A stretch of DNA of 64,000 nucleotides from an uncultured archaeon (GTDB lineage: Archaea > Thermoproteota > Nitrososphaeria > Nitrososphaerales > Gagatemarchaeaceae), in contig CAWCYD010000003.1 in NCBI GenBank assembly GCA_963799775.1, forward strand, positions 1,408,001 to 1,472,000, written 5' to 3'. Positions 7,562-24,640 of this stretch are shown here, one piece after another. The position numbers and the translations under genes were made by a program. How positions within the stretch are numbered: the stretch's first letter is position 1; every line of letters begins with the position of its first letter. The notes below the pieces were generated by a model, which ran no database searches, was not told where the DNA came from, and saw only the letters and a program-made list of their open reading frames with translations.

Positions 7562-8839
7562 TCAGAACGGCACCTTCACTATCGCCCCGCCGTCAGGGAG
7601 CGACGCCACGTACTCGTATCCCTGCCCTATGTAGGAACTGACCTCCTGCACCGGGATTACCTTCTGCCTGGAGCCGTTGCCCGTCATCATGCCGACCAGC
7701 CTCTGCCTCACAGTGTTCTGCAGCTCCTCGTCGGTCATCTCTTCGAGGTTCATCCTCTCGACCTCCTCCTTCTTGAATCCCGCGACAACGAGAAACTGCT
7801 CCCGCAGCGCCTTCTTGATCTGCTCCTGGCTCGAAGAATCGGCTTTGGTGCTAGAAAGAAGGGACTCGCATCTCTTGTAGGCAGCACGCATCTCCTCTAT
7901 CATGTCCGGCGGTAGTCTGCCCTTGTTGGTCGAATACCTTGCTTCGATATCGCCTTTGTGCCCCATGAAGAACTGGCGCCACGGATGGGAGATGGATCCC
8001 TTCGACTCTGCGATGTCGAAGGCCGTGCCGCAGTAGGATCTCAGCACGTACGGCCTCCAGGTGAACCCTGCCTCCTTCATAGCGAGCTTGACCTCCCACG
8101 AGAGCTTCGTCGTCCGCAGGAAAGCGAGCTTGCTCCCCTCCCTCACATGGGTGATTACGGGGGTTTCTGCGTCCAGCTTCTCCCCACTCCTCATCCTTGC
8201 CTCGAAGTATTCCTTGAGGTACTGGCATCCTTCCTCAGGCAGGAACGAGAAGTACTGGTGCCGGGCCTTGCTGAGCGTCTTCCTCACCATCACGATGGTA
8301 GGAACCTTGGTGAACTCCACGGTACGCTTCTTGATTTCGAGCTCACGCAAATCGCCGAGCCTCAAGCCGTCAGTGCCCAAGTAATTAGCGAGGCTCTCTG
8401 GTCTCAACCCCGAAAACGCCATGAACGCGGCAATCGTCCTCGCCCTCGGGTCGCAGTGCCTGAATATCTGGGCGAGCTGCTCCTTCGTCGGCACGACCTC
8501 GTCAACGTAATCCGAGGTGGGGAGCTTGATCTTCTTGGTTATCTCGAAGCCGTGGTGCCCCAGCCAAGACTTTATCGTCGTTAGGTTGTTCCTGGCCTGG
8601 GCGGGCTTCTCCCCCTTTGCAAGCGACCTGTCGACATAGTCCATGATGAAGTCGTCGAAGCCGTCAGGCGAGGCGCGCTTCTTCTCGATTATCTCCCTCG
8701 GGCCGAGCTCCGTCACAATGCAGAACCTACCCAACCGCCTGAGTCTCTCTTCCGCTGTGATGATGCTTCCCCTTGCGAGGTTGTCATACCATCTCTTGAC
8801 GTCCGGTTCATTCAGCAGGTGCTTGTGCCTCGGTTTCAT
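7562..8839 (-). CDS. Tyrosine recombinase/integrase
   Basis: SGLRP (catalytic R), YVLRSY, FMGH, ARY (catalytic Y); starts 47 nt from the tRNA-Gly 3' end. Confidence 0.92.
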
Positions 8840-8885
8840 GCCCCAGCGAGGTAGGGCAACGAATGAATTTAAACTTAGTTAAAGG

Positions 8886-8977
8886 TGCGGTCGCCGGGAT
8901 TTGAACCCGGGCTACCAGCTTGGCAAGCCTACACGCCCATTGAGGCTTGATGTCCTACCAGGCTAGACAACGACCGC
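8886..8977 (-). tRNA. tRNA-Gly(GCC) with a 19-nt intron at position 29/30 (8929-8947)
   Basis: Acceptor GCGGTCG/CGACCGC, T arm CCGGG-TTCAAAT-CCCGG; splicing restores TCAGC-TTGCCAA-GCTGG; strict BHB G-ACAT-CA^A-GCCT...GGGC-GTGT-AG^G-C. Confidence 0.93.
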
Positions 8978-9022: not shown

Positions 9023-9437
9023 TCAGGCGACCTTTGTGCCCGGGGGCATCTCTTTGTCGGGGCGAAGAAGGGCCAGGTCGCTCTCGGTGAAAGACGCGAG
9101 CATCATGCATTCGGAGACGACGCCCGCGATGGGCTTGGGCTCGAGGTTCATCACGGCGACCACCTGCTTTCCTACAAGCTGCTCCTTCGTGTAGTAGGCC
9201 TTGATCCCTCCCGCGCACTGCTTGATTCCCTCGGGACCGAAATCGATTGTGAGCTTGTAGATGGGCTTCCTCGCCGTGGGTATGTCCTCGACCGTCAATA
9301 TCTTTCCAACCCTGAATTCGAGCTGGGCGAAACCCTGGAACGGGGACCTTTGGTGCCTTTGGAGGCCCTGCTACTGGAGTCTCGGCCGGTTGTGCTCCCG
9401 GCGCTGGAGTTGGGGCCGGTGCGGGTGCATTGGACAT
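9023..9437 (-). CDS. tRNA-binding OB-fold protein (Trbp111/CsaA-like); frameshift near 9335
   Basis: FRVGKILTVEDIP..RKPIYKLTIDFG...QCAGGI...NLEPKPIAGVVSECMML; Pro/Ala-rich N-terminus in another frame. Confidence 0.85.
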
Positions 9438-9555
9438 GCAAAGACCCTTTTGCCGTTCTGCAAATAAAGCATTGGGCCCCCCTCAGATTGCATGACGCTT
9501 TCCTAACAAACCCTCGCTAGTCATATATTCACCAGGGAAACGACGTTTGAAAGGA

Positions 9556-9726
9556 ATGCCTGGAAAGAAGCATCTTCGCGGCGTAGGTCCCAAGGAGCAG
9601 AGGGAGTACGAGCACATCAAGGAGAGCGCGGAAAAGTCGGGCCGCTATGGCTCAAGGGCGGCGGAGGTCGCTGCTCGGACAGTGATGAAGCAGCACAAGC
9701 AAAAGGGCCACGCGACCGGCAAGTAG
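9556..9726 (+). CDS. Small basic protein (ChaB-like / 'plasmid stabilization'-type stress family)
   Basis: 56 aa MPGKKHLRGVGPKEQREYEHIKESAEKSGRYGSRAAEVAARTVMKQH; below the ORF track cut-off. Confidence 0.75.
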   Translation: MPGKKHLRGVGPKEQREYEHIKESAEKSGRYGSRAAEVAARTVMKQHKQKGHATGK

Positions 9727-9773
9727 CCGCTCAAATCAGATAACGAGCGCGGTCCGACCCATCGGATTTTCTT

Positions 9774-10838
9774 TTAGGCTATCCCGATGGAGGTGAGGTC
9801 AGGCTTCTCGCCCCTTAGGGCCGGAATGACCCGGCGGCCATAGAAGTCGATCGCTCGCGACTGGTCCTCTACCGGGGCGTGGACCACGACGTGCGTGGCC
9901 CCCAGGCGCCCCAGCTCCTTGATGGCGTCGGCGTGGTCTCTTGGGTCTGAGCTCACCGTCCACGTCCTAAGAACCTCTTCGAGCTTGACCTCCTTCTCCG
10001 CGCGCCGCTGGATAGAGGCCGGGCTCACGTTGTCGTGGTATCCCTTCTCCCAGGCCTTCGGGATGAAGCGCCACTTTTGAGCGGCCTTCTTCGCTTCATC
10101 CGTCTCGCCGGGGATGGCCCAGTGCTCGACGACTATTGGCATCGAGGAGGCGTCCTTCCCTTCCGCACGCGCTCCTTCCTCGAAGGCGGCCTTGAGCTTC
10201 GGCTCCCTCAGGCTCTCCGCCCCCGTTATCATCCCGTCTCCGTATAGGCCTGCCAGACGCGCGGACTTTGGTCCGCCCGCTGCGATGTAGAGGGGAATCG
10301 GAGCAGGAGGAGGGTCGTAGAGCTTCCCCTCGACGCTCCAATGCTCGCTGTCTATCTTGACGTCGTCGCCCGTCCATAGGGCGCGGATTATCTTGACAGC
10401 CTCCACGAGGCGCGATGCGCGTTCCTCGTAAGGTGCCCAGCCACCTCCGGCGGCCCCTTCGTTGAGCTTCTCGCCTGTGCCTACCCCTAGGAAGAGCCGA
10501 CCCGGGGCCAGAGATGCGAGGCTGGCCCAGACCTGGGCGACGACCGCCGGTCGATAGCGAAACGTCGGGCAGGTCACTCCGGTGCCCATCATCACCGCTG
10601 AGGTTCTCTGCGTCAGGGCTGCGAGCGTAGGCCATGCGGCTGCGGCATGACTCTCGTTGGGCTGCCAGGGCTGGAAGTGGTCGCTGGTCCAGACGCCGTC
10701 GAACCCGGCGCCCTCAGCTTCGACGCCGAACTGGACGAGCGAGGGAGGCGGGAACTGTTCGCATGCGAGGACGTAGTAGACTTTGGGGATGCCCATGTTC
10801 GACCGAGAGCGCTTCCCAGCCTTCGACTTCATCTGCAT
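9774..10838 (-). CDS. F420-dependent LLM-class oxidoreductase (G6PDH-like family)
   Basis: EQFPP, AGFDGVWTSDHFQPW, GTGVTCPTFRY, LGVGTGEKLNE; may start at ATG 10796. Confidence 0.9.
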   Translation of the reverse strand: MQMKSKAGKRSRSNMGIPKVYYVLACEQFPPPSLVQFGVEAEGAGFDGVWTSDHFQPWQPNESHAAAAWPTLAALTQRTSAVMMGTGVTCPTFRYRPAVVAQVWASLASLAPGRLFLGVGTGEKLNEGAAGGGWAPYEERASRLVEAVKIIRALWTGDDVKIDSEHWSVEGKLYDPPPAPIPLYIAAGGPKSARLAGLYGDGMITGAESLREPKLKAAFEEGARAEGKDASSMPIVVEHWAIPGETDEAKKAAQKWRFIPKAWEKGYHDNVSPASIQRRAEKEVKLEEVLRTWTVSSDPRDHADAIKELGRLGATHVVVHAPVEDQSRAIDFYGRRVIPALRGEKPDLTSIGIA

Positions 10839-10928
10839 CCGCTCATCTGGGAGACTCCGCTCTTAAGAACGCGTGGTCAGATTCATCTGAATCAAATCTG
10901 CTGAGTAGGCCCTGGAGTTCCCGCGGAG

Positions 10929-13199
10929 TCACAGACCTAGTCGCAGAAGCTTGTCGGGCGTTATCGGAAGCTCCCTGACCCTGATCCCTGTCGCGTTGTA
11001 GACGGCGTTCGCGATCGCCGCGGCGGCCCCCGTGATCCCGATCTCGCCAATCCCCCTTGCTCCCAGGGAGTTGAAGCGCGTGTCAGGCTTGTCGAGGAAC
11101 TTCACCTCGATGTGGGGCACGTCGCCGTTCACCGGGACCAGGTAGTCGGCGAGGTTCGAGTTCACCACCCTGCCGTGATGGGGGTCGTAGTGCGTTTCTT
11201 CCGTCAGCGCCATCCCAATGCCCCAGACGATGCCTCCGATGAACTGGCTCCGGCCGGTGATCGGGTTAAGGACCTTGCCCGTGTCGAAGACGCCGAGGAA
11301 ACGCGAGACCCTGACCTCCCCAAGGTCTTTGTCGACCCTCACTTCCGCGAATTGCGCCCCGAACGAGTGGAAAGAGAACTTGTCCTCCTCCTCGCCCGGG
11401 CTGGACCTCGCCTCCCCTTGGACGGAGGGGAGGTTGTGCCGCAACATGACGTGCGAGAGGGACCCCTGGCGACCTTGAGCCCTTTGCTACGAGGCTGCCG
11501 TCCTTCATTCGGATGTCTCCGAGCGGGACTCCGCGCATCTCCGCCGACTTGCCCGTCCTCGAGAGCTTCGCCAGCTTGTGGATGGCGTCTTGACAGGCCT
11601 CCTTCACAGCGGGCATGACGCTCGCGGTCGTGGTCGACCCTGCGGACCTTGGGGCGGGCGGGAGGTCGGAGTCGCCAAGCCCTACTCTCACTTTCCCGAT
11701 TGGCACACCTAGAGTCTCAGCCGCGACCTGGGCGGCGATGGTGTACGTCCCGGTGCCCAGGCCCTGGGACGCCGTAGAGACCACAACGCTACCGTCGGGG
11801 AAGACGGAGACCCGGGCGGAGGCCGAGAAGCGACCTGCGTGATAGACCGCGGTGGCCATCCCCATCCCGACGAGGCTGTTGCCATCCTGCACGGAGCGCG
11901 GCGTGGCTTTCCTCTCGCGCCAGCGGAAGGCCTTCGCCCCTATCTCGTAGCATTCGTCGAGGTGTTTTCCCGACCAGGGCTTCCTCTTCTGAGGGCTCCC
12001 CTCCGGGCGTAATTGACCATCCTGAGCTCTATGGGGTCCATCTCGAGCTCGCATGCCAGCTCGTCCATCGCAGACTCGAGCGCGAGGGTCCCGCTCGCCT
12101 CGCCTGGACCCCTCATGTAGGTCGGGGGGGCGATGTGGACGGGTACTGCCTTGTGCGAGATCCACATGTTGGGGGAAGCGTAGAGCATCGCGGTGACTGC
12201 CCCGGCGGGTTCGAAGAACTCCCCCACGAAGGTGGTCTGGCTTACGACGTCGTGCCCGGTCGCGACCAGTCTTCCGTCCTTCCTCGCGAGGAGCGAGAGC
12301 CTCTGCAGCGTGGATGCCCTGTGGCCCGTGGAGGAGAACAGGTACACTTCCGGCTGAGCATCAGCTTCACAGGCCTGCCGACGACCTTGGACGCCATCGC
12401 GGCGAGTATCGGATGGTGCCCCAAGCTGCCCTTGGAGCCGAAGCCGCCGCCGATGTAGTGCGAGACGACCCTGACGTTCTCCTTACCTATCCCGAAGACC
12501 TGGGAGAGGGTGTCCCTCGCGCTGACGACGGCCTGAGAGGAGTCGTAGACCGTGAGGTTCCTTCCCTGCCATGTGGCGGTCGACGCCGAGGTCTCCATGG
12601 GGTTGTGGTGCTCCACCGGGATGACGTAGGTTCATCTCGATGGAGACAGTGTCGGGCGACTTTGAGCCGAAGGCCTTTGCGCCCTTGCCTCTGGTTGTCT
12701 GCATCGGGACGTCAGTGTGGTTGTGACGGAGAGGAGACGAGGCTCTGAGGATGTCCTCGACCATGTCGAGAGACGGCTCCTTCTCCTCGTACTCTACTCG
12801 AAGGAGCGAGGCGGCGTAGGCTGCCTGCTCGAGCGTCTCCGCCACCACGACAGCGACGTGCTGACCCGCGTACTGGATGACGTTGTCCTGGAGAGGGAGC
12901 TTGGTCTCTATCGTGAGCGCGTAGGGGCTCTTCTCAGGGTTGTGCAGGCGAGGGCGGTTCTCGTGCGTGATTATCGAGAGGACGCCGTCCGCTCTGCCGG
13001 CCTCATCCTGGTCGATCTTCTTGATCTTTCCGTTGGCTATCGTGCTCTGCACGACGCACGCGTAGGCCACGTTCTCCAGGTCGATCTCCGCGGAGTAGTG
13101 CGCCCTGCCGGTGACCTTGGCTGGGCCGTCGATGCGCGGGATGGGCGCGCCTACAGGAGATCTGGCTTCGCCACGCCGCTCGACAAGGACTGTGCCCAC
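10929..13199 (-). CDS. Xanthine dehydrogenase-family molybdopterin subunit (PaoC/YagR-like); several frameshifts
   Basis: Collinear fragments RIDGPAKVTG, HHNPME, GGGFGSKG, MRGPGE, GLGTGTYT, ARGIGEIGITG in different frames. Confidence 0.9.
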
Positions 13200-13204
13200 G
13201 GCTT

Positions 13205-14218
13205 TCAGCTCCCCGACCCCGTCTTGCCACCCTGCGACGACGTGACGAGCAAGGCCCGCACCATGGCCCTCTTGCAAAGTTCGACCTTGAAGCCGTTGTC
13301 TTCATGGGGCCGGGCGTCCCTGAGAGCTATCTCTGCGGCGCCCCGAAACTGCGGCTCGGTAGCAGGCCCTCCGATGAGCGACTCTTCCGCCTCTCTTGCT
13401 CTCCAAGGGACGGTCCCGACGCCCCCGAGCGCGATCTTCGCCGCCCGGATGACCCCTTCGCGCACGTCCAGAGCCGATGCCACCGAGACGAGAGCGAAGT
13501 CGAACGAGGCTCTGTCCCTCACCTTGAGGTAGTGGGAGCTCGGAGGTGAGGGCGCCCTCATCTCTACCCCCGTGATGAGTTCGGATGGGAGAAGAGCGTT
13601 CTCGATGTGCGGGGTCTGGCCCGGAAGCTTGTAGAAGTCACCTATGGGGATGGACCGCTCCGCCCCGTCGACCGTCCTCGTCAACACGGTCGCGTCGAGG
13701 GCGGCCAGTGCGACGCAAAGGTCAGAAGGATGGGTCGCGATGCAGCTCTCGCTCGTCCCCAGGACCGCGTGGGCCCTGTTGAGACTCCCCATCGCGGAGC
13801 AACCCGAACCGGGAGACCGCTTGTTGCAGGCGAAGGAGGTGTCCCGGAAGTAGTAGCAGCGCGTGCGCTGGAGGAGGTTCCCGCCGATCGTGGCCATGTT
13901 CCTAAGCTGGTGCGAGGCGCCGGACTTGAGCGCCTGCGAGACGAGGGGGTAGCGTTCCTTGACCAGGGAGTCCTCGGCCACCACGCTGTTTCGCGCCATC
14001 GCCCCTATCCTCAGGCCCGAGTCCTGCCCGGGGATCGGCTCTATGCGATCCAGGGCGAGACGGCTGATGTCGATGAGGAGGGCAGGTTCCTCCACTCCGA
14101 GCTTCATCAGGTCGATCATCGACGTCCCTCCGGCGACGAAAGAGGCCCCAGCCTGGGTGTGGGCCGCATCCAGGGCCTGCTCTTCGCTCTCTGCACGGAG
14201 GTAGCGGAAGGGTTTCAT
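13205..14218 (-). CDS. Xanthine dehydrogenase-family FAD subunit (PaoB/YagS-like)
   Basis: AGGTSMIDLMK, QLRNMATIGGNLLQRTRCYYF with the CNKR..GSGC Fe-S insert, KVRDRASFDFAL. Confidence 0.93.
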   Translation of the reverse strand: MKPFRYLRAESEEQALDAAHTQAGASFVAGGTSMIDLMKLGVEEPALLIDISRLALDRIEPIPGQDSGLRIGAMARNSVVAEDSLVKERYPLVSQALKSGASHQLRNMATIGGNLLQRTRCYYFRDTSFACNKRSPGSGCSAMGSLNRAHAVLGTSESCIATHPSDLCVALAALDATVLTRTVDGAERSIPIGDFYKLPGQTPHIENALLPSELITGVEMRAPSPPSSHYLKVRDRASFDFALVSVASALDVREGVIRAAKIALGGVGTVPWRAREAEESLIGGPATEPQFRGAAEIALRDARPHEDNGFKVELCKRAMVRALLVTSSQGGKTGSGS

Positions 14219-14766
14219 CGGCCCCGAGACCTCCGCTTATCCGAGTCTTCGCGTACCTCCGCGACGTCCATTATTGCGTCCACTATGTTCGGGTAGGCGC
14301 CGCAGCGACAGATGTTCCCGCTCATCATCTCCCTCACTTGGGCCTCCGTCACTCCCTTGCGCTCCCAAAGGAGCCCCACGGCGGACATTATCTGCCCTGG
14401 CGTGCAGTAGCCGCACTGGAACGCGTCATGCTCGATGAACGCCTCCTGCATTCGGCTGAGCGTGCCTCCCTTCTCTAGGCCCTCTATCGTCGTGATCGAC
14501 CTTCCCTCGCACATCACGGCGAGCATCATGCATGAATCGACCGGGATGCCGTCGACCAGTACCGTGCAGGAGCCGCATTGTCCGTGGTCACAACCTTTCT
14601 TCGTCCCCGTCAGCTTCAGCTTCTCGCGGAGGGCGTCCAGGAGCGTCAGCCTCTCGTCAATGAGCATGTCATGGACGGTCGCGTTCACGTTCAGCTTCAG
14701 AGGAACACCCTTGTGGTGCGCGTCGCCGGCCTGCTTCCTGCTCAACGCGGGTCTATCGGGAGCCAT
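14215..14766 (-). CDS. Xanthine dehydrogenase-family 2Fe-2S subunit (PaoA/YagT-like)
   Basis: GTKKGCDHGQCGSCTV, QCGYCTPGQ, GNICRCGAY. Confidence 0.93.
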   Translation of the reverse strand: MAPDRPALSRKQAGDAHHKGVPLKLNVNATVHDMLIDERLTLLDALREKLKLTGTKKGCDHGQCGSCTVLVDGIPVDSCMMLAVMCEGRSITTIEGLEKGGTLSRMQEAFIEHDAFQCGYCTPGQIMSAVGLLWERKGVTEAQVREMMSGNICRCGAYPNIVDAIMDVAEVREDSDKRRSRGR

Positions 14767-14986
14767 CGATAAAAAACTGCCAGCGTCGTTACTATTAGTG
14801 GGCTCATAGCCTACCGCGTGGATTCCTAAGAAGCGGTCTCGCCTCGGAGTCCTACAGGCCCTTGCACGCAGTGATACGTGAACTGCGCGATGCGGGGGGA
14901 CCGCCAGAAAGTGACGTCACGACAGCATCGCCGTACATGTGGGATCAGACCGGAATGCGACCACCCTTTGGTGGCCGCGCGTCTCG

Positions 14987-15154
14987 CTAGAGCGATTCGC
15001 CGAATAGCAACGCCAGGAGGAAGAGGGCCACGAAGACGACGATGAGTATCTCCGCGATCTCCATGGAAAGTCCGGCGAGTCCTCTCGCGCCGAAGATGTA
15101 TGCCACGAAGGCGATTATCAAGAACAGGACTGCGAGCCCGATTAGGTCGACCAT
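14987..15154 (-). CDS. UPF0391/DUF1328 small membrane protein
   Basis: 55 aa MVDLIGLAVLFLIIAFVAYIFGARGLAGLSMEIAEILIVVF; not in the ORF track. Confidence 0.8.
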   Translation of the reverse strand: MVDLIGLAVLFLIIAFVAYIFGARGLAGLSMEIAEILIVVFVALFLLALLFGESL

Positions 15155-15279
15155 TCTGTTTTCACCACGTTACACAGGCTTCTACCTTTATCTTGAGATA
15201 CGCAGGCGTCTCCATAAGATAGTTAGCAAAGAAAACCACCGGATTGGTGGTCCCAAGTTGGCCCCCGACCACCTAAATA

Positions 15280-15992
15280 ATGAGGTCGGCTTTTGACACC
15301 GCGCGCAGCAGGTTGGAAGAGGGAGAAGAAAGCAGGAGCGCTTCAGGTCCGCCGCCTCGCATCAAGCTAAGGATAGAATCGCTCTCGGACCTTGTCTTCG
15401 GGCTCGCCCTCTCGATTGGGGCGCTCATCCTCGCGGGGAGCTTGCCGTCGAATGGGAGCGTCCTGGCAATCAGGGTCATCGAGTTCGGGTTCGGCTTTCT
15501 CATAGTGATTATGACGTGGCTCGGATATTCGAGGATCATGGCCGTCCTTCCTGTCGAGGTGCCTTTTGCACTGGTTGCGAACATCCTACTCCTCTTTCTG
15601 GTCGTTCTCGAGCCATACCTTCTCTACGTGCTTTTTTCGGCGCAGACCGACGCTCTGGCAAGCACGTTCTCTATCGCATATGGCCTCGACGTCGGCGGGT
15701 TGTTCTTCATGCAGGCCCTGCTGGCGTATCTGGTGCTCAAAGAGGCCGGGTCGGGCGAGCATGGGCAGGCCAGCCTGCATCCCGTGGTGCTGAAGAGGTT
15801 CAAGAGGATAGCGAGGGCCGACGCGGTGATAGCGATCGTCTTCGTCGTCTCCACGCTCCCGATTTTTTGGATCGACACGCCGATAGATACCTCCGATTCT
15901 AGATGTGGTACTCTTCCTTCATCATCTTGTTCGCCGCTATACCGGTTCGAAGGCGTGACGAGGGAGCAGCGCCTAGAGCGCCAAAGCAATGA
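15280..15992 (+). CDS. TMEM175-family (DUF1211) potassium channel; C-terminus interrupted by a frameshift and an in-frame TAG
   Basis: RIESLSDLVFGLALSI signature and multiple TM helices; last helix continues in another frame as YLRF*MWYSSFIILF. Confidence 0.8.
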
Positions 15993-16022
15993 CATCGGCT
16001 ACACAATTTCCATATACCGTAT

Positions 16023-16589
16023 ATGGCCTACATCACGGGGTCGATGGGTTTGCGGGGCCGCTTGCACGCTGGAGACGACGTCCCGAACGAGGTCAACGTC
16101 GTGATAGAGATTCCAAGGGGGAGCGACGTAAAGTACGAGATGGACGAGAAGACGGGGTTCGTGTTCGTCGACAGGTTCCTCTACACCTCGACGCACTATC
16201 CGTTCAACTACGGGTTCATCCCGCGGACCCTGAGCCAGGACGGGGCACCGCTCGACGTCCTCGTGATAACCGAGGGCCCCGTCTACCCGATGTCCGTCAT
16301 CCGCTCGAGGCCGATCGGGGTGTTGCTCATGGAGGACGAGGGCGGACCGGACGCGAAGCTGGTCGCTGTCCCGGCGAAGCACATCGACCCGACATACTCT
16401 GACGTCGAGCACATCATGCAGATACCCGCGTTCACGCGGAAGCAGATCGAGCACTTCTTCAGCCACTACAAGGAAGGCGAGCCAGACAAGTTCGTCAAGG
16501 TGGACAAGTGGGAGGACCAGAAGGCGGCGAAGGCCCTGATCAGGGCGGCGGTGAAGCGGGCCGAACGAGCGGAGTCGAGAAGGCGCTAG
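16023..16589 (+). CDS. ppa: Family I inorganic pyrophosphatase
   Basis: IEIPRGSDVKYE, DRFL, YPFNYGFIP, PLDVLV, MEDEGGPDAK, HFFSHYK. Confidence 0.92.
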   Translation: MAYITGSMGLRGRLHAGDDVPNEVNVVIEIPRGSDVKYEMDEKTGFVFVDRFLYTSTHYPFNYGFIPRTLSQDGAPLDVLVITEGPVYPMSVIRSRPIGVLLMEDEGGPDAKLVAVPAKHIDPTYSDVEHIMQIPAFTRKQIEHFFSHYKEGEPDKFVKVDKWEDQKAAKALIRAAVKRAERAESRRR

Positions 16590-16630: not shown

Positions 16631-16720
16631 GGGCCGGTCGTCTAGTTTGGTAGGATAGCCCCTTGGCAAAGAAATCCAAACTGGGGCAGGTCGGGGGTCC
16701 GAGTCCCCCCCGGTCCACCA
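16631..16720 (+). tRNA. tRNA-Ala(GGC) with a 13-nt intron at position 37/38 (16669-16681); CCA encoded
   Basis: Acceptor GGGCCGG/CCGGTCC with G3.U70; anticodon arm GCCCC-TTGGCA^...^T-GGGGC; TTGG/CCAA central helix; T loop reads TCCGAGT. Confidence 0.93.
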
Positions 16721-16786
16721 CTTTTCGTTAACTATCGAGTTTTAATTCGTCAGGATGCTCTTATGTGAAGCGCTAAGGAAACGCCG

Positions 16787-17152
16787 ATGATCAACTGGGC
16801 CTACGTCGCGGGCTTCTTTGATGGTGAAGGCAGTTTGCACATGGACCGATACGAGTCGACAGTCCAACTTCGAATCGATAATACCTTCCGGAGAGCGATT
16901 GTAGAAATAAAGTCGTTCGTCAAGTGCGGAACCATCTCTAACCGGGGAAGAGCGAAGCCCTATCACAAAGATCGCATTAGATTGACAGTGTCAAATCACT
17001 CGGATGTCCTAAGGATTCTCGAAGGAATGCTCCCATACCTGATTGTTAAGAGGGAACGGGCGGAGGCCATGATTGGATACATCAGGGGAAGGAAATGGAG
17101 AACCTTTCCGACGGAGATGACATCAATCATAACCCCGGTCCACATCAAATAA
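16787..17152 (+). CDS. Single-motif LAGLIDADG homing endonuclease-like protein (free-standing)
   Basis: WAYVAGFFDGEGS motif, CGTI, ILEGMLPYLIVKRERA C-terminal pattern. Confidence 0.88.
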   Translation: MINWAYVAGFFDGEGSLHMDRYESTVQLRIDNTFRRAIVEIKSFVKCGTISNRGRAKPYHKDRIRLTVSNHSDVLRILEGMLPYLIVKRERAEAMIGYIRGRKWRTFPTEMTSIITPVHIK

Positions 17153-17304
17153 GCTTATTTTCACCTCTATTTGGCAATCAAAGCTTGAAATATGGCGCCA
17201 TGACCACCGCCAGCGCAGCGCGAGCCCAAGAAAAATCAGGAGGAAAGACACGATCAGAAGGCCGTTGTCAGGCGGCCTGGACGCTTCGTGCTATGGCGCC
17301 GTGC

Positions 17305-17595
17305 TTAACCGAGGAGGCTTGGCAAGACCTTGTCTGAGCTCTTGCTGCCGTCCAGCGAGACTATCCCGCTTATCTCGTCGTAGACTCTCAGGAAATGAAG
17401 GCCCTGCTCGGTGAGCTTGTATTGTGCGCTTTCTGCTTCGAAGCTGATCAGTTTCCTTTCCGTCAGGAACTGGATGTATTCCTGGACCTGGGCATATGAG
17501 AGAAACGCGCTGTACATCAACCTCGTCTTCGACGCGCCATTCATCGCCGCTTGCAGAATCATTGAGATTATGTCGGTCCTGCTTCTGTACTTCAT
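17305..17595 (-). CDS. Winged-helix regulator (HTH_45 family)
   Basis: MKYRSRTDII...GASKTRLMYSAFLSYAQ...YKLTEQG. Confidence 0.9.
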   Translation of the reverse strand: MKYRSRTDIISMILQAAMNGASKTRLMYSAFLSYAQVQEYIQFLTERKLISFEAESAQYKLTEQGLHFLRVYDEISGIVSLDGSKSSDKVLPSLLG

Positions 17596-17692
17596 GCAGC
17601 CATGTTATGCTATCGTTCTCTATATTAAGTCTGTGGAACAATCTTCAGGCACCGTCTCATGAGTCGTTGGTCCGAGTCCATCGACTTTGAAG

Positions 17693-17968
17693 CTAACCTA
17701 CTTCGACGAGTTCCTTGACTCTCTTCACCTTGGCCACAGCGTATGACCAAAGCACCCCGTTTTCCTTCATTCCCTTCATGTCGATGAGCTTGTCCGACCT
17801 GAAGGTCACCCTCCTGCCCCCTTCATCGCGAAGTGCCACTTCGTATCCCCGCAAGATATTGCTGAACGTCTCCCACGCCTTCACATCGGCGGCGTATTCG
17901 TACCCCTCTAGTTCCTCTTCTACGAATGGAGAGCCTTCGCGATCGGGATACACATTATCCTGTGACAA
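17693..17968 (-). CDS. Hypothetical protein
   Basis: 91-aa ORF with TTTATA box upstream near 18001-18006. Confidence 0.6.
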   Translation of the reverse strand: MSQDNVYPDREGSPFVEEELEGYEYAADVKAWETFSNILRGYEVALRDEGGRRVTFRSDKLIDMKGMKENGVLWSYAVAKVKRVKELVEVG

Positions 17969-18162
17969 GAGGGATACAGCCTTGTTGGTTCGATGCGCTC
18001 TATAAAACAGATTTCGACAATGTTATGTTCTCTTTCTTGAGTCTCTCCTGGCAACATTCAGGCTTATCCGGCCGCCACGGCGGGCGCGAAAATCAAGGAC
18101 CCGCCCGATTTTATTCACGCTCACCTAGGTTCCTCAGAGAATGAGGTTGAGAATCTTAGGCT

Positions 18163-18486
18163 TCATCGGTCAGCGGGAAATCGATCGTTGGCTTCGGGGA
18201 GTTCCGTCGACGCCTTCCCGACGTTAGTTGTGACCACTGCGTTTCGCCCCTTGTTTGTGAGGAAGTAGTGCACGACGAATCCGTCTCCCTTGCCCTCGAT
18301 GAGGCCCTCTGACACGAGCTGGTTCACCGCGCCGATAAAATGCCCCCACGGATACTTTGGATTGGTACGATACAAGTCGCGCAGCGTCATTGGGAGGGCG
18401 TCCCCACCAAATGCAGAGAGAACGTACTTCAGAACTTCGTCTTGTGGATAGCCGTCAGGTTCCATGAAAGCTCCCCCGGAGGTCAT
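18163..18486 (-). CDS. Winged-helix hypothetical protein
   Basis: AVNQLVSEGLI...YFLTNKG wing motif. Confidence 0.6.
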   Translation of the reverse strand: MTSGGAFMEPDGYPQDEVLKYVLSAFGGDALPMTLRDLYRTNPKYPWGHFIGAVNQLVSEGLIEGKGDGFVVHYFLTNKGRNAVVTTNVGKASTELPEANDRFPADR

Positions 18487-18640
18487 AGAAAGTCCTCCTA
18501 CACCTTTTCATGTGTAATACGACGTGACTATATACGCCTTCTTCGCTCCCTAAAATGGCTCCTCCAACCATATTATGCGAGCATTTGGGGGAAATGTTTA
18601 ATTTATCCAAGCTCTATGGGACTGGTAAGACTGAGAACGT

Positions 18641-19120
18641 ATGAGCGGCAGGCATGGAAAGTTAACTCAAGTCGATAGGAAGCTGTTGAAGATACTGCTG
18701 AATCCAGATGGGCATCCCTCATCAGCGCAAATCTCTAAGAAGCTAGGCATACCTGCGACGACGGTCCAAAGGAGGCGCAAGAGGCTGGAGAAGGACTTTC
18801 TGACTCTGACTTACTCTTTCAACCTGGAGAGGTTTGGGTGGCGCAAGGTCGAGTTCCTTCTCGCGACTGAGCGCGGCAAGACTACCCAGGTAGCACACGA
18901 GCTTCTGAAGCGAGATGATGTCGTCTATGTCGGCAGAAGCATTGGGCAACAGACGATCGACCTGAGGGTGGAGACGGTATTGAAAGGTAACTCTGAGATC
19001 CTCCAGATGCAGGAAATCCTGAAGGCGATGGACGGCGTTAGGGAGGTCGTCTGGACGGAGATCGTCGAGGTGATCGGAAGGAAGTCTTCCATACCATCCC
19101 GAATCATCGACGAGCTCTGA
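18641..19120 (+). CDS. Lrp/AsnC family regulator
   Basis: DRKLLKILL..SAQISKKLGIPATTVQRRRKRLE; C-terminal RAM-like domain. Confidence 0.88.
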   Translation: MSGRHGKLTQVDRKLLKILLNPDGHPSSAQISKKLGIPATTVQRRRKRLEKDFLTLTYSFNLERFGWRKVEFLLATERGKTTQVAHELLKRDDVVYVGRSIGQQTIDLRVETVLKGNSEILQMQEILKAMDGVREVVWTEIVEVIGRKSSIPSRIIDEL

Positions 19121-19370
19121 TTTCTCGAGACACCTGTGCGACGCAGTGTGACGCTATTTCCTCTTCCGCAGCGGCCCCCGGCAAACACGGTCCAACAAGT
19201 GCAGCATGGGATGAAGGTGCAACGGGTCTTTGGGCATCTAAGGCCGAAGACTCAGACGAATAATCGGCTGACTCCCCCCGGTCCACAACCTTCGAGCCCA
19301 TTTGCGACTAGGATATGCGTCGCATTCTGTTGATGATAGTTTCTGACTGCATAAGGCTTAAAGCCAGATA

Positions 19371-19667
19371 ATGCAAAATTTGCAACCCAGTGAAGGGCCT
19401 CGCTTGGCAACCTTAGACCGGGTGATGTATCCGAGGCCGGTAAGATGGCTCAAAGGGGCCTTCTATTTTGGCGCCTTGGTAATCGGCCTTTCCGCAATTC
19501 CGTTTGAGTTTTACCTTGCCACTTCGCCATCCACAACGCCACAGTTCCTGATAAACGACATGGTAGTGGTTGCGGCCGCGCTGTTGCTTCTGATGACGTT
19601 AAGCTCCTTCACAGAGCCGATCTATGATAGGCTGTGGGCGCGCCGTTTAAACAGGGAGCCGGGCTGA
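19371..19667 (+). CDS. Two-TM hypothetical membrane protein
   Basis: Two hydrophobic helices; starts soon after the second att-like repeat. Confidence 0.55.
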   Translation: MQNLQPSEGPRLATLDRVMYPRPVRWLKGAFYFGALVIGLSAIPFEFYLATSPSTTPQFLINDMVVVAAALLLLMTLSSFTEPIYDRLWARRLNREPG

Positions 19668-19929
19668 TTCGAGGCTCGTACGAATAATCGTCCGAGCGGC
19701 TACGATTCCCCTCTTGTTCTTCGTGGACTCGGCTGCCGCCGAAGACAAGTAGCGCGAATTCGTAATGGCCAAGAAGTCAGACCTTGAGAGGATCTTGGCT
19801 CTCCTCTGCCGCTTGGAGCCCGAATATGGTTCTCGGCCTTCTTAGTTTCTCTACTTCCTCCGCTTCCATCCTCGCAGCTCAGAACGCTTTACTATCCCGA
19901 CCACGTTTTTCCAATTGGTGAGATGAGCA

Positions 19930-20253
19930 ATAGCTAGAGCCCCGAAATCGGTCAAGTTTGGAGAAGCGCTCCAGGCTCACCTCGACAGCCTTCCGCAGAA
20001 CGACGCAGAGCGGAAGTGGCTTGATGACACGAAGTCGGTCCTTCGGGAAAACATGTTCGCTGGCGAGAGCATCCGAAAGAACCTAATTCCCCAGCACTAC
20101 ATCAGAAAGTTCGGGGTCAACAACCTGTTCCGCTACCATCTTCCAAAGGGCTTCAGGGCGGTTTACACTCTCGTTCGGGAAGATGACGAGATTTCCGCGG
20201 TTGTGCTCGAAGTCCTGGATCACAAGAGCTACGAAGAGAGATTCGGCTATTGA
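19930..20253 (+). CDS. RelE/ParE-like toxin
   Basis: Open frame from ATA at 19930 (GGTGA upstream); NLFRYHLPKGFRAVYTL...VLEVLDHKSYEERFGY. Confidence 0.7.
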   Translation: MARAPKSVKFGEALQAHLDSLPQNDAERKWLDDTKSVLRENMFAGESIRKNLIPQHYIRKFGVNNLFRYHLPKGFRAVYTLVREDDEISAVVLEVLDHKSYEERFGY

Positions 20254-20257
20254 ACTG

Positions 20258-20554
20258 TTAGGCCGGGACGCTCGCTGCGAGCAGCTTCCTGAGCTTCGGG
20301 TTGTTGACCCCCGTGTAGAAAATCCGTCCCTCGTCGTTGATGGCGATGGTGCCGTGACTCTCGAGGTACTGGAGCGCCCTCTGGAAGGTCTGATACTGGA
20401 CCTTCTTCGGGAGGGAGTTCCAGAGCTCCGTCCTCGTTGGATAATCCTCATGGTCGAGTATTGACTTTTCTATCATCATCACCGTCGATATCTTCGGCTC
20501 GTGCAACACTCTCTTAATCGAGATGCCGCTGTGGCGTGCGGACTGAAGCGTCAT
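20258..20554 (-). CDS. Small winged-helix protein (candidate antitoxin or regulator)
   Basis: HEPKISTVMMIEKSI...RTELWNSLPKKVQYQTF...YLESHGTI; TTATATA box upstream. Confidence 0.75.
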   Translation of the reverse strand: MTLQSARHSGISIKRVLHEPKISTVMMIEKSILDHEDYPTRTELWNSLPKKVQYQTFQRALQYLESHGTIAINDEGRIFYTGVNNPKLRKLLAASVPA

Positions 20555-20689
20555 ACCTGTGTAACTGCGACCCGGCTGTCTATATAAGTTTATACAAGTC
20601 AAATGATGCTCCCCAATTCTGGAGATAGGCGCGTAAATACGACTCGTTCTTTGTATACTCAATGATTATGGACGAGGAACGCGAAGGGT

Positions 20690-20761
20690 TCCGGACTCAC
20701 TCAGAGGTTGGCCAGGGACTCGCCCCTTGTAAGGGGCGGAACCCCCCCCCCCCCGGTCCAC
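20690..20761 (+). pseudogene. Degenerate tRNA-Ala-like remnant
   Basis: GCCCC-TTGTAA-GGGGC matches the tRNA-Ala anticodon stem and is followed by a C run and GGTCCAC. Confidence 0.45.
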
Positions 20762-20931
20762 ATAATTATTCATGTAGAACCTGGCCCGGCTAGCTCATGA
20801 CGCTCACCAACAATAAGAAATCGGTGAGAAATGGGAAAATGAGAGGCCTCAGCCTGATACCCTGCCACACCACGACGTTGAGAAGTCGAGCACTGCTCAA
20901 GGCGGGCCTAGGCCCCGAGCACAAGCCGATC

Positions 20932-21450
20932 TCACATCTGCTCGATGATTCCTGGCGGTATTGATTTCTTGGAGCCGACAATTTCGACGATTTCGCTCCA
21001 TATCACGTCTCTCACTTTTGGCATGGCTTTTACCAGTTCGAGGAGTCCGAGCAGCTCCGAATTGTCCTTGATTATCACCTCTGCCCTCAAGTCGATCGTG
21101 TGCTCTCCGATGGACCTGCCGACAGATACCACCTCGTCACGTTTCAGCAGCTCGTGCGCAATTGGGAGAGTCGCCCCCCCTCCCGTGTAGATCAAAAGGT
21201 CAACGCGCCTGAAACCCAGGTTTTTGAGATCGAGCGAGTACGCGAGATCGAGATAGTTCTTTTCCAGGTACCGGCGCCTTCGCTGGATGGTGCTCCGAGG
21301 AATGCCAAGCTTCTGCTCCAACTCCCGTGAAGTGACCGAGCCCTTGGGTTCAAGGAGGATCTTCAGTATCTTCCTGTCCAAATCAGAGAAAATGTGCTGA
21401 AGCGCCACGCCTTTGCCCTCCATCAGCCCGCTTCCCTCATCCCTCTTCAC
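20932..21450 (-). CDS. Lrp/AsnC family regulator, paralog of 18641..19120
   Basis: LDRKILKILL...LGIPRSTIQRRRRYLE...VGRSIGEHTIDLRAE. Confidence 0.88.
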   Translation of the reverse strand: MKRDEGSGLMEGKGVALQHIFSDLDRKILKILLEPKGSVTSRELEQKLGIPRSTIQRRRRYLEKNYLDLAYSLDLKNLGFRRVDLLIYTGGGATLPIAHELLKRDEVVSVGRSIGEHTIDLRAEVIIKDNSELLGLLELVKAMPKVRDVIWSEIVEIVGSKKSIPPGIIEQM

Positions 21451-24355: not shown

Positions 24356-24640
24356 TCACTTTGAGACCAAAGCATCCGGGATCTCTTCGTCGAGCGGTAC
24401 GAGCTTGCTGAGCTCCTCGTAGATGTGTAGGAAGCGGACTCCCTTCTCGGTCAGCGCGTAGATGTGCGTCTCCTCGTCCCTCGTTATCAGCGAGTTGGCC
24501 GTCAAGAAGCCGAGGTACTCGTTGATCTGTGCGAAGGAGAGGAACGAGCCGTACATCAGCCTCGTCTTCGTCGCGTTGCCCGCACGTGCGACGTGGAGGA
24601 TGTTGGATGCGATCGCAAACCTAGACCGGTATTTCATCAT
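24356..24640 (-). CDS. Winged-helix regulator (HTH_45 family)
   Basis: MKYRSR...ATKTRLMYGSFLSFAQ...YALTEKG. Confidence 0.9.
   Translation of the reverse strand: MMKYRSRFAIASNILHVARAGNATKTRLMYGSFLSFAQINEYLGFLTANSLITRDEETHIYALTEKGVRFLHIYEELSKLVPLDEEIPDALVSK

Follow-up and report, generated by a model that had tools for sequence, protein, structure and literature searches.

A probable decayed tandem array of integrase-bearing elements at an archaeal tRNA-Ala gene

The tRNA-Ala locus described here is probably a decayed tandem array of integrase-bearing elements at an integration hotspot. In the window (the whole 64,000-nucleotide stretch of archaeal DNA that was analysed) the 3' end of a tRNA-Ala(GGC) gene recurs three times downstream. 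Three of the four segments appear to trace to larger tyrosine-integrase elements, and only the 0.41 kb LAGLIDADG unit looks intrinsically small. The row of repeats is a known kind of genomic scar and not a new gene-capture system.

The tRNA target and its repeats

16023-16589, + strand: inorganic-pyrophosphatase-like gene (name from sequence reading), conserved left neighbour of tRNA-Ala
16631-16720, + strand: tRNA-Ala(GGC) with a 13-nt intron and encoded CCA (ARAGORN -i; alleles compared with relatives)
17133-17144, + strand: r1, tRNA 3'-end relic CCCCGGTCCACA
17669-17679, + strand: GGTCCGAGTCC, a fourth and truncated core relic, from the tRNA's T-loop part

The tRNA was detected neither by default ARAGORN nor by Rfam. 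ARAGORN with intron search identified it as tRNA-Ala(GGC), with the 13-nt intron in the anticodon loop, G3:U70 pairing, and CCA encoded in the gene; positions 16705-16720 form the integration target core. GC content drops here from ~0.64 to ~0.52. The pyrophosphatase-like gene has a match in 18 of 31 related genomes (66-81% amino acid identity) and adjoins tRNA-Ala(GGC) in G006, G008, G016, G017, G018, and G034, anchoring the locus in relatives. The relatives compared include no strain above 95% identity to this genome.

The tRNA 3'-end 11-mer CCCCGGTCCAC has exact copies at 16708, 17133, 19276, and 20751, all on the + strand, which bears out the original prediction of three directly oriented recurrences. 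The C-runs begin at 16705 (tRNA, 7 long), 17133 (r1, 4), 19274 (r2, 6), and 20742 (r3, 13). The three distal cores share their 12th base (CCACA); the tRNA itself reads CCACCA. The segments between cores measure 412, 2129, and 1454 bp, in agreement with the predicted ~0.43, 2.1, and 1.5 kb. Checked against background, the four exact copies compare with 0.06 expected, and 0 of 100 shuffles reach four. Allowing one mismatch costs the test its power: the sites found are again these four, but 2.26 are expected and 17 of 100 shuffles get to four. The whole 2.47 Mb genome holds five exact copies, four of them at this locus. Gene-content differences between genomes coincide with the cores, and the proposal that successive insertions at the tRNA 3' end left the repeats behind as attachment-site cores is supported.

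The comparison with other tRNAs that had been suggested shows the pattern there too: tail repeats occur at 8 of the 30 tRNAs of this genome, one tRNA-Arg having seven. Counting tail repeats of at least 12 nt within 20 kb of the 30 tRNAs, 18 lie downstream on the same strand vs 2, 2, and 4 in three control directions. In the tRNA-Arg(TCG) array, with its seven repeats, the last five are spaced at 676-1064 bp. A segment of 830 bp found at two tRNA-Arg arrays with 91.6% identity was considered as a mobile module and rejected, since it belongs natively to the right side of tRNA-Arg cores and is conserved there in 8 of 23 genus genomes.

The integrase family

7577-8833: nearest integrase, part of a separate tRNA-Met element

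G017 carries a 12.6 kb element at tRNA-Ala, made up of a 473-aa integrase gene next to the tRNA, ~11 kb of cargo, and at the far end a 22-bp core repeat whose left flank matches the r2 flank. An intact integrase also directly follows tRNA-Ala in G006 and the MAG L037. The family is a tyrosine recombinase of pNOB8 type with the catalytic pattern R..YxxR..H..Y (invariant residues R159, K214, Y310xxR313, H340, and Y348); the YxxR signature is given as defining this type in the relevant part of PMC8371274. An AF2 model (pLDDT 72) matches archaeal XerA 4a8e at 2.7e-07 as well as IntI and phage integrases, and the integrase paralog in the window matches the phrog_1 integrase at 1.9e-11.

The family is present in 21 of 23 genus genomes, often truncated: among the 75 matches listed, 13 end by model position 241 of 434. 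Only one of ten core-bounded segments at tRNA-Ala (G000, G017, G018, G031, and G034) has an intact integrase. The G017 array contains one intact integrase gene, one truncated at ~residue 236, and one 44-aa stub. This genome has three full-length family integrases beside other tRNAs and two more matches on C2, one of them frameshifted.

Searches with Pfam and integrase tblastn found no recombinase in the three window segments, as originally stated, and no integrase remnant was found inside them. Nor was an integrase found at a tRNA-Ala(GGC)-type core in this genome, which is only 81.7% complete, so the cognate integrase could sit in the missing part. IMG/VR yielded no free form of the P2 arm, the P3 arm, or the integrase family. 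The proposed integron-like accretion site is mostly not supported: no integrase gene adjoins tRNA-Ala, the one at 7577-8833 belonging to the tRNA-Met element, and there is therefore no integron-like platform.

Segment contents and end arms

16787-17152, + strand: single-motif LAGLIDADG homing-endonuclease gene, segment 1 (Pfam LAGLIDADG_1, phrog_5046, PADLOC HEase)
17305-17595, - strand: HTH_45 winged-helix gene, segment 2
17693-18486, - strand: pair of small ORFs (91 aa and 107 aa), segment 2
18641-19120, + strand: Lrp/AsnC-type HTH regulator, segment 2
19219-19287, + strand: P2 arm and r2, probably what remains of the right end (attR) of an integrase-bearing element of G017 type
19371-19667, + strand: 98-aa ORF with two hydrophobic stretches, segment 3
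20053-20253, + strand, and 20258-20554/20662, - strand: convergent pair of a 66-aa ORF and a 98-134-aa ORF, both common to G018
20617-20762, + strand: P3 arm and r3, apparent degenerate intron-less tRNA-Ala copy ending C13-GGTCCACA
20763-20843, + strand: left arm and first 11 codons (VRNGKMRGLSL) of a tyrosine integrase gene, remainder deleted
20932-21450, - strand: second Lrp/AsnC-type paralog, opening a continuing low-GC island

The predicted gene content stood in part. The LAGLIDADG gene (LAGLIDADG_1 7e-05, 24.1 bits against a cut-off of 23.1; phrog_5046 4e-13; PADLOC HEase 1.8e-05), the HTH_45 gene (Pfam 9.2e-20), and the Lrp/AsnC regulator (HTH_24 2.7e-08; HTH_AsnC-type 3.2e-07) were recovered, but the "RelE-like toxin" and "wHTH" of segment 3 had no match in Pfam, NCBIfam, PHROG, or PADLOC. 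For this putative toxin/wHTH pair, RelE/ParE-type clusters are a language-model lead only (0.92). Family searches gave no significant match for the 91-aa and 107-aa ORFs and no match for the hydrophobic 98-aa ORF.

Several segment 2 genes have counterparts in G017. HTH_45, a multi-copy family in this genome, has a 67% (amino acid) homolog there on the other side of the tRNA, the 107-aa ORF a 52% homolog, and the Lrp/AsnC regulator a 77% homolog; the regulator also has six paralog matches in this genome, including 20932-21450. The segment 2 genes in G017 sit upstream of the tRNA, bounded by a 5' tRNA fragment, an arrangement left unexplained by a simple history of 3'-end integration. P2 arm and r2 match the attR of the 12.6 kb G017 element at 90.8% identity (65 nt aligned) and G018 at 85% (68 nt). 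The core identity is 22 bp in the G017 element; r2 differs by two mismatches and has one C fewer. Both r1 and r2 are degraded compared with the 22-26 bp identity of intact elements, and the ~50 nt after r1 (AAGCTTATTTT...) resemble left arms of relatives' elements. The relic GGTCCGAGTCC is a deletion end-point within a former att site and divides segment 2.

In segment 3, the region of the convergent pair is 87.9% identical to G018 over 776 nt vs 80% for a flanking housekeeping gene, and its two ORFs share 80% and 76% amino acid identity. The left 550 bp of the segment has no counterpart in G018, and the 98-aa hydrophobic ORF is missing there. In G018 the segment 3 homolog is preceded by the remains of a G006-type integrase gene, namely its left arm and start codon, the rest being deleted.

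P3 arm and r3 appear to form a right end conserved across a family of elements. The arm is 94.5% identical to G031 and G034 over 73 nt and occurs in 7 of 97 family genomes; the tRNA-Ala-like left flank of r3 is kept in 5 of 23 genus genomes. Aligned co-linearly with the tRNA body, the G018 copy scores 32 vs 16.1 +/- 3.2 for shuffles, and the window copy reaches p~0.03. Identity of 94.5% across species, compared with ~80% in the housekeeping flank, suggests recent spread or constraint, and the element ends may therefore still be active. Beyond r3, 20763-20843 matches the G017 attL and integrase start (blastn 76% over 100 nt) and was also aligned with L037. The low-GC island extends past 20761, and synteny with G008 returns only near 39.4 kb. 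The relic GGTCCGAGTCC, the integrase start stub after r3, and the island past 20761 had been overlooked in the original prediction.

Insertion, decay, and alternative readings

Under the preferred reading of a decayed array, integrative elements of one family, found in this Nitrososphaerales-type archaeal genus and encoding a pNOB8-type tyrosine integrase, would recombine with the tRNA-Ala(GGC) 3' end. Every insertion would restore the tRNA and place a core copy C(n)GGTCCAC(A) at the far end, so repeated insertions would give a head-to-tail array. The elements would then decay by internal deletion, the integrase being the first to go, and leave small regulator or addiction-type genes and end arms. 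P2 arm and r2 would be the relic right end of a G017-type element, and P3 arm and r3 that of another element type, the arm itself being an old tRNA-Ala copy that lacks the intron. After r3 come the left arm and the opening codons of an integrase gene that is otherwise deleted, and the half core at 17669 would be where a deletion ended inside an att site. Segment 1, with its LAGLIDADG homing-endonuclease gene, would be a separate insertion into the tRNA core, small by nature. Several points count against this reading: three genomes have the LAGLIDADG unit in its small form, no integrase remnant was found within segments 1 to 3, the left 550 bp of segment 3 is unmatched in G018, the segment 2 genes sit upstream of the tRNA in G017, and the P3 arm is unusually similar across species. 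Repeats, arm homology, integrase stubs, intact counterparts in relatives, and the spread of the pattern over the genome are shown; we infer the order of insertion and decay events. The array is presumably immobile in this genome now, since no cognate integrase was found.

The capture of tiny cassettes by a trans-acting recombinase, as first proposed, gives way to eroded large islands, which three of the four segments appear to be. For segments 2 and 3 the erosion evidence consists of homologous arms and genes in other species. The r2 flank corresponds to the right end of the 12.6 kb G017 element, segment 3 lies in G018 behind the remains of a G006-type integrase gene, and the 11 codons after r3 belong to a G017/L037-type integrase. 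Stages of decay are visible across the genomes, from the intact, truncated, and stub genes of G017 to the 11-codon stub of the window and the arm with start codon of G018.

An active accretion platform, an archaeal counterpart of bacterial CIMEs close to the first proposal, is an unlikely alternative. Here integrase-less mini-elements with functional arms would be excised and re-inserted at the tRNA core in trans by an integrase from a resident paralog or an incoming element. The arms are far better conserved than the cargo (the P3 arm at 94.5% in four genomes with different adjoining genes), left arms after different cores have common motifs, and arm types are combined differently from genome to genome. 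The distribution of the P3 arm, the 87.9% identity of segment 3 between G000 and G018, the family integrases elsewhere in this genome, and the sub-kilobase spacings at tRNA-Arg(TCG) point the same way, and CIME accretion is described as established in bacteria in the part of PMC5704250 concerned. However, the stubs show that at least two array members formerly carried an integrase, the r1 and r2 cores are degraded, no resident integrase was found at a tRNA-Ala(GGC)-type core, and no free form of the arms or integrase family was found in IMG/VR. The best two-locus module, the 830-bp tRNA-Arg segment, proved to be a native neighbour.

Rather improbable, and confined to segment 1, is that the LAGLIDADG gene is a free-standing homing element targeting the tRNA-Ala(GGC) 3' end or flank. 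It would spread by double-strand-break repair and carry along a replacement tRNA end including CCA; r1 would be the displaced original tRNA end and no integrase product. The altered C-terminal tail of the gene reads through r1. Homologs lie directly 3' of tRNA-Ala(GGC) in G015 and G251 (56% and 55% amino acid identity), and the motif residues are intact in all three copies. G000 and G251, which belongs to another genus, have the same order of tRNA with CCACCA, LAGLIDADG gene, and ...GGTCCACA relic, and then the flank found next to the tRNA where the gene is absent; in G015 the tRNA and the gene are present but no distal repeat is clear. The distribution is sporadic (2 of 23 genus genomes, and one close homolog, G251, among 74 further family genomes searched), and small LAGLIDADG genes lie between tRNA genes at 6 of 80 metagenome loci. 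A contig from run X3 joins 16718 to 17165, the tRNA straight to the segment 2 arm, as in a relative without segment 1, but this is a single contig at depth 2.7 from a diverged organism, and cleavage is putative. Homing does not normally make a direct repeat of its target. The short left flank also resembles integrase-type elements (CCAC..TTTTCGT vs CCACATAATTATTCGT), so segment 1 may be one more eroded element.

That the repeats are chance or low-complexity C-run matches biologically unrelated to the tRNA is refuted, despite a short (11-12 nt), C-rich core and a one-mismatch count not significantly different from shuffles, by the exact counts, by genome-wide rarity (copies co-oriented and <=4.1 kb from the tRNA, with only one more in the genome), and by the homology of the r2 and r3 flanks with the att flanks that other genomes have at this tRNA.

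Comparison with known systems

Integrons likewise have co-oriented small units between recombination sites and a tyrosine recombinase family in their origin. The tRNA-Ala array differs in that it has no integrase gene or promoter at its head, its sites are copies of the tRNA end with element-specific arms vs attC hairpins, and its units are multi-gene remnants vs promoter-less single ORFs. Phage T4 has a homing endonuclease gene within its tRNA cluster. Free-standing homing-endonuclease genes resemble segment 1 as small, sporadic LAGLIDADG genes beside a tRNA, with the metagenomic homologs being distant, but segment 1 is bracketed by the tRNA 3'-end repeat and lies within an integrase-type att array.

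Archaeal tRNA-gene arrays (thaumarchaeal "cryptic integrated elements", pNOB8-type) share the tRNA 3'-end target, here intron-containing, and the short direct repeats. In the portions of the survey dealing with them, thaumarchaeal att sites are described as short, with a median length of 17 bp and a minimum of 8, and 57% of them fall within tRNA genes (PMC6563490). Tyrosine-recombinase elements are described there and in PMC8371274 as building arrays through re-use of the site, with integrase loss reported after integration; the likeness extends to an R..YxxR..Y integrase that stays intact on integration and is later lost. By the survey's account, elements were detected via their integrases and range from 2.6 to 140 kb (PMC6563490), whereas the window members are all integrase-less and 0.4-2.1 kb, and a single tRNA of this genome has up to seven cores.

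CIMEs and the tandem accretion of ICEs and IMEs in Streptococcus and other bacteria are alike, as far as the account in PMC5704250 goes, in the loss of integration genes with attL and attR kept, in tandem arrangement with newer arrivals at the tRNA 3' end, and in a model of integration, decay, and accretion. Unlike these, the present array has an archaeal host and no conjugation genes in view (relic mobilization being putative), and its cores are shorter, several of them visibly degraded. By analogy, the tRNA-Ala array appears comparable to bacterial CIME accretion.

Repeats of the tRNA-Ala(GGC) 3' end

The source genome (G000) comprises 2.47 Mb in three contigs, with a GC content of 58.8%; the window spans C3:1408001-1472000. 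Neither default ARAGORN nor Rfam (at gathering and E-value thresholds) detected a tRNA at the reported place, and intron-aware ARAGORN was needed to find tRNA-Ala(GGC). The tRNA 3' end (r0), CCCCGGTCCAC, has three further exact copies in the window:

16631-16720, + strand: tRNA-Ala(GGC), found by ARAGORN with intron search; 13-nt intron, G3:U70 pair, CCA encoded
17133, + strand: r1, end of segment 1
19276, + strand: r2, end of segment 2
20751, + strand: r3, end of segment 3

The original prediction that the tRNA end recurs three times in direct orientation was confirmed by exact counts of its 11-mer, which is present four times against 0.06 expected, and none of 100 shuffles reached four. The 1-mismatch search returned the same four sites against 2.26 expected and is hence uninformative as a test. 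Exact copies number five genome-wide. The distal cores r1-r3 have CCACA in common, while the tRNA itself reads CCACCA, and the C-run is 7 long in the tRNA and 4, 6, and 13 in r1, r2, and r3. The length of this run is unstable at 19274 and 20742: relatives have 7 C where r3 has 13, and one additional C at 19273 appears in a contig from one soil sequencing run (X1). GC content falls from ~0.64 to ~0.52 at tRNA-Ala and is still low past r3. The inserted DNA is thus bounded by direct repeats co-oriented with the tRNA, with flanks homologous to attachment-site flanks in relatives. Neither the remainder of the genome nor the DNA past r3 yielded any further flanks of this kind.

Segments 2 and 3 as probable remnants of integrase-bearing elements

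The locus is probably best explained as a decayed tandem array of pNOB8-type integrase elements with a small LAGLIDADG insertion. No recombinase or integrase gene lies within segments 1-3 of the window, yet integrases are present in relatives, so the window holds remnants and not complete members. Relatives were found through the pyrophosphatase-like gene upstream of tRNA-Ala, which was matched in 18 of 31 related genomes; the locus was fetched from eight of them, and arrays from more. An intact integrase sits at the same tRNA in genomes G017 and G006 and in the MAG L037.

In G017 the tRNA is followed by 67 nt, an intact 473-aa gene, ~11 kb of other genes, and the tRNA end repeated over 22 bp. 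On its left, this distal repeat has 65 nt with 90.8% identity to the left flank of r2 (the P2 arm), and because of this r2 with its arm is taken as the right end of a G017-type element. The r2 core in the window has decayed relative to G017 (two mismatches, one C fewer). The 473-aa protein had no Pfam or NCBIfam matches but is a tyrosine recombinase by its sequence and predicted structure. It is 33-36% identical to three full-length G000 paralogs, one of which matches the phrog_1 integrase (1.9e-11). The residues R, K, YxxR, H, and Y are kept in five aligned members, with R159, Y310xxR313, H340, and Y348 invariant, and Foldseek on the predicted model (pLDDT 72) returned archaeal XerA, integron integrase, and phage integrases (top hit 2.7e-07). 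The YxxR motif is described as the signature of pNOB8-type integrases (PMC8371274). The family shows the tyrosine-recombinase fold and the R..YxxR..Y pattern of that type, and the gene is unsplit by integration, being intact while integrated in G017.

Traces of such genes are found after segment 3 in the window and before its counterpart in genome G018. Directly after r3, window positions 20763-20843 align, in both G017 and L037, to the left arm, the leader, and 11 codons (VRNGKMRGLSL) at the start of the integrase gene, and homology ends after the 11th codon. An integrase-bearing element formerly began at r3 and then lost its integrase. G018 has the segment-3 genes as well, 87.9% identical in nucleotides along 776 nt and terminated by an r3-type core. 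In front of them stand a degenerate r2-like core and then a 44-nt stretch that shares 90.9% identity with the left arm of the G006 intact-integrase element and includes its ATG, beyond which homology ends. This arm and start codon in front of the segment-3 genes indicate that segment 3 is also what remains of an integrase-bearing element.

Stages of this erosion are visible in the genus. In the G017 array, an intact integrase gene is accompanied by a second one cut off near residue 236 and by a third reduced to a 44-aa stub. The family is present in 21 of 23 genus genomes, and among the matches listed in the genus, 13 of 75 end by position 241 of the 434-position model. Only one of the 10 core-bounded segments at this tRNA in G000, G017, G018, G031, and G034 has an intact integrase. 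Elsewhere in G000, at C2:214895-216194, a family gene is read in two different frames, one matching model positions 2-318 and the other 316-434, and is probably frameshifted; in its C-terminal part it is the resident copy nearest to the tRNA-Ala-type integrase.

The P3 arm

The left flank of r3 (the P3 arm) is conserved over ~130 nt in G000, G018, G031, and G034 (94.5% over 73 nt), while the genes adjoining it vary between genomes. Of 97 family genomes, 7 contain a single copy of a 21-mer from this region, five of them among the 23 genus genomes. The arm is co-linear with the part of the mature tRNA-Ala that runs from the D-loop to the anticodon arm (alignment score of the G018 copy 32, against 16.1 +/- 3.2 for shuffles; window copy p ~0.03), and this similarity marks it as a degenerate tRNA-Ala copy without an intron and with most of the T-arm gone. 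A structured RNA was considered and rejected, as the fold is no better than that of shuffles (z 0.55), and in Rfam no family was found, the sole match being a chance miRNA (E 9.2). TATA-like boxes (TAAATA and GTATA[CT]) lie upstream of the arm at window 20630-20665 and are kept in G018, G031, G034, and G004. The spacing of this putative promoter is similar to that of the real tRNA promoter.

The LAGLIDADG unit of segment 1

Segment 1 contains a LAGLIDADG gene (Pfam 24.1 bits against a cut-off of 23.1; phrog_5046 4e-13). Close homologs were found in only two other genomes searched, G015 among the 23 genus genomes (56% amino acid identity) and G251, the sole close one in other genera of a 301-genome order sample (55%). 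The G-F/L-FDGEG motif of the LAGLIDADG domain, with its acidic residue, is invariant in the three homologs. In both G015 and G251 the gene directly follows a tRNA-Ala(GGC) ending in CCACCA. In G251 the gene is succeeded by ...TCGGTCCACA and then by a flank like the post-tRNA flank of genomes without the LAGLIDADG gene. The last 11 residues of the window ORF are non-homologous and run through r1. In one low-depth soil-run contig (X3, from a diverged organism), 16718 and 17165 are linked by 21 diverged letters, which matches a relative whose tRNA passes directly into the segment-2 arm. From these comparisons, segment 1 appears to be a small insertion in its own right, moved either by an integrase or by homing, both of which are possible.

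The tRNA-Ala end at locus L004 (genome G016) reads GGTCCACCA and then immediately CGGTCCACA, so that the two kinds of end adjoin with nothing between. This double end may be the footprint of a lost LAGLIDADG unit or a pre-insertion state. Lateral replacement of the whole tRNA together with the LAGLIDADG gene was considered, since G000 and G015 have the same tRNA allele type, and was rejected. The link between allele and gene is not strict, because the MAG L037 has the same type of intron in the anticodon loop without a LAGLIDADG gene.

A metagenome scan with the LAGLIDADG alignment found distant homologs only (<=38% identity), none with tRNA-Ala in front. Six of the 80 metagenome loci (L077, L078, L081, L082, L096, L104) have a small distant LAGLIDADG gene just upstream of tRNA-His(GTG), and in two of the six it lies between tRNA-Arg(TCT) and tRNA-His.

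Gene content and its alignment to the repeats

The gene content assigned earlier to the segments was upheld for the LAGLIDADG, HTH_45, and Lrp/AsnC-type regulator genes. The proposed RelE-like toxin of segment 3 and its wHTH partner had no profile matches in four libraries, and their sole support is a language-model lead. Family searches of the segment-3 proteins and of the two small segment-2 ORFs were all negative. The HTH_45 and Lrp/AsnC-like genes, seen at 17305-17595, 24356-24640, 18641-19120, and 20932-21450 in the window and also on other contigs, are members of multi-copy families; tblastn returned at least 7 and at least 6 matches, respectively. Downstream of tRNA-Arg(TCT) at C3:1684367, more copies occur at a distance of 3-6 kb. 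Their distribution suggests that both are typical cargo or regulators of these elements.

Changes in gene content between genomes align to the repeats, as anticipated. G017 has a 12.6 kb element between the tRNA and a P2-type core, G018 has segment 3 between r2-like and r3-type cores, and the X3 joint corresponds to a relative without segment 1. The P3 arm and core of G004 lead directly into the flank found after the tRNA in G008, the classic picture of an occupied site and its other state.

Insertions are also seen on the 5' side of the tRNA. G017 has the block from HTH_45 to Lrp of segment 2 on the upstream side of the tRNA, with order and orientation unchanged, between a 26-nt tRNA 5' fragment and the intact tRNA gene. 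5' fragments of tRNA-Ala are present in G018 and G016 as well. At L021 (G017), L020 (G018), and L004 (G016) a fragment of 24-26 nt directly follows the pyrophosphatase-like gene, 0.87-4.3 kb from the intact tRNA. The fragments imply that elements also enter on the 5' side and that modules move between element backbones. In a survey of thaumarchaeal elements, 5'-side insertions into tRNA genes are described as rare (PMC6563490). Within segment 2, an 11-nt T-loop fragment (17669-17679) splits the segment and looks like a half core left by deletion. A simple 3'-end account leaves the G017 upstream block, the 5' fragments, and this half core unexplained.

Further upstream, a gene matching window 9026-9358 lies directly before the pyrophosphatase-like gene in G006, G008, and G018. 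In the window the two are separated by ~6.7 kb of high-GC DNA (9358-16023), which includes a putative 2Fe-2S/molybdopterin-dehydrogenase-like cluster (named from ORFs only).

Other tRNA genes and mobility

A check for the same pattern at other tRNAs of the genome had been proposed, and the pattern was found there: 8 of 30 carry at least one repeat. Counting matches of >=12 nt from the last 28 nt of each tRNA within 20 kb, 18 repeats fall in the same-strand downstream direction, and the three control directions yield 2, 2, and 4. Intact integrases adjoin the tRNA-Met of the window, tRNA-Arg(CCT), and the tRNA at C3:1349006. The tRNA-Met(CAT) lies at 8884-8977 (- strand) and the intact same-family integrase at 7577-8833 (- strand); copies of the 13-nt core lie on the downstream side at distances of 16.3 and 17.3 kb, in DNA that precedes the window, with a 919-bp PIN-domain segment between the two copies.

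The array at tRNA-Arg(TCG) (L063, C3:1228500-1239798, outside the window) has seven co-oriented 3'-end repeats of 11-20 nt at 2214, 6978, 7837, 8691, 9755, 10431, and 11187 nt downstream, the final segments being only 676-1064 bp. This array contains no integrase, and its cargo includes a DCC1-like oxidoreductase and a nucleotidyltransferase pair. A 235-aa gene of no assigned family occurs twice in G000 (C3:46182-46886 in locus L064 and C3:1231927-1232631 in L063). The two copies are 91.6% identical in nucleotides over 830 bp and start exactly at a tRNA-Arg core. The 830-bp module was rejected as proof of cassette mobility and is weak evidence for it, because tRNA-Arg cores usually have this gene on their right, as in 8 of 23 genus genomes. 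In G031 it directly follows the intact tRNA-Arg. In relatives the gene comes after cores that belong to various tRNA-Arg isoacceptors, a hint that tRNA-Arg loci recombine with one another.

That the remnants are still actively mobilized in trans is unlikely. No excision junction was found in the covered parts of contigs from three soil runs (one study) other than the X3 joint 16718-17165. In the free elements of IMG/VR the P3 pattern had no matches and the integrase-family profile found no relatives; the sole P2-pattern match is due to chance, having neither a core nor related genes.

Less likely still is a broader version, in which tRNA 3' ends of these soil archaea are standing accretion sites, with a pool of pNOB8-type integrases acting in trans to shuffle integrase-less modules that have conserved arms. 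The modules would then include regulators, addiction-type pairs, the LAGLIDADG unit, and an intron-less tRNA-like arm with its own conserved TATA-like box. Within this version, the LAGLIDADG unit in particular would represent a new kind of minimal mobile element, one that targets a tRNA end by homing and supplies the replacement for it. If true, the broader version would be an archaeal analogue of CIME or integron-like gene accretion, missed by integrase-based surveys. The original proposal of integron-like accretion survives as far as successive site-specific insertions are concerned. Trans capture of tiny cassettes is mostly not supported, in view of the integrase stubs and the larger elements of relatives.

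The locus gives a clear multi-genome picture of integrative elements piling up and eroding at one archaeal tRNA gene, with intact, truncated, and stub-only integrases visible side by side in relatives. Integrase-based archaeal surveys miss many short remnants, and more than a quarter of the tRNAs in this genome carry them. Annotators should treat the repeats, together with the pseudo-tRNA arm and the small orphan genes that they enclose, as mobile-element debris and not as a new capture system.

Comparison with known systems

The array differs from an integron in being headed by no integrase or promoter: the intI/attI/promoter head is absent, and the nearest integrase (that of the tRNA-Met element) belongs with a different core. 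The segments end in copies of the tRNA end with P2 or P3 arms.

Several traits of the locus agree with what has been described for archaea. Thaumarchaeal attachment sites are reported as short (median 17 bp, down to 8), 57% of integrations are in tRNA genes, intron-containing ones included, and tyrosine-recombinase elements build arrays through site re-use; the surveyed elements are integrase-defined and range from 2.6 to 140 kb (PMC6563490). Tandem integration and integrase loss after integration are both described in archaea (PMC8371274). What is new here is only a matter of degree and detail, namely the very short remnants, the many cores per tRNA, the pseudo-tRNA arm, and the LAGLIDADG mini-unit, and the supplements of the cited papers may already list such sites.

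The locus is also comparable to CIMEs (cis-mobilizable elements). As in these, segments 2 and 3 keep cores and arms without a recombinase. No functional element adjoins the array in G000. In a three-step model described for bacteria, an element integrates, decays to a CIME in which attL and attR persist, and is then joined by a newcomer through accretion (PMC5704250). The window fits this model of integration, decay, and accretion.
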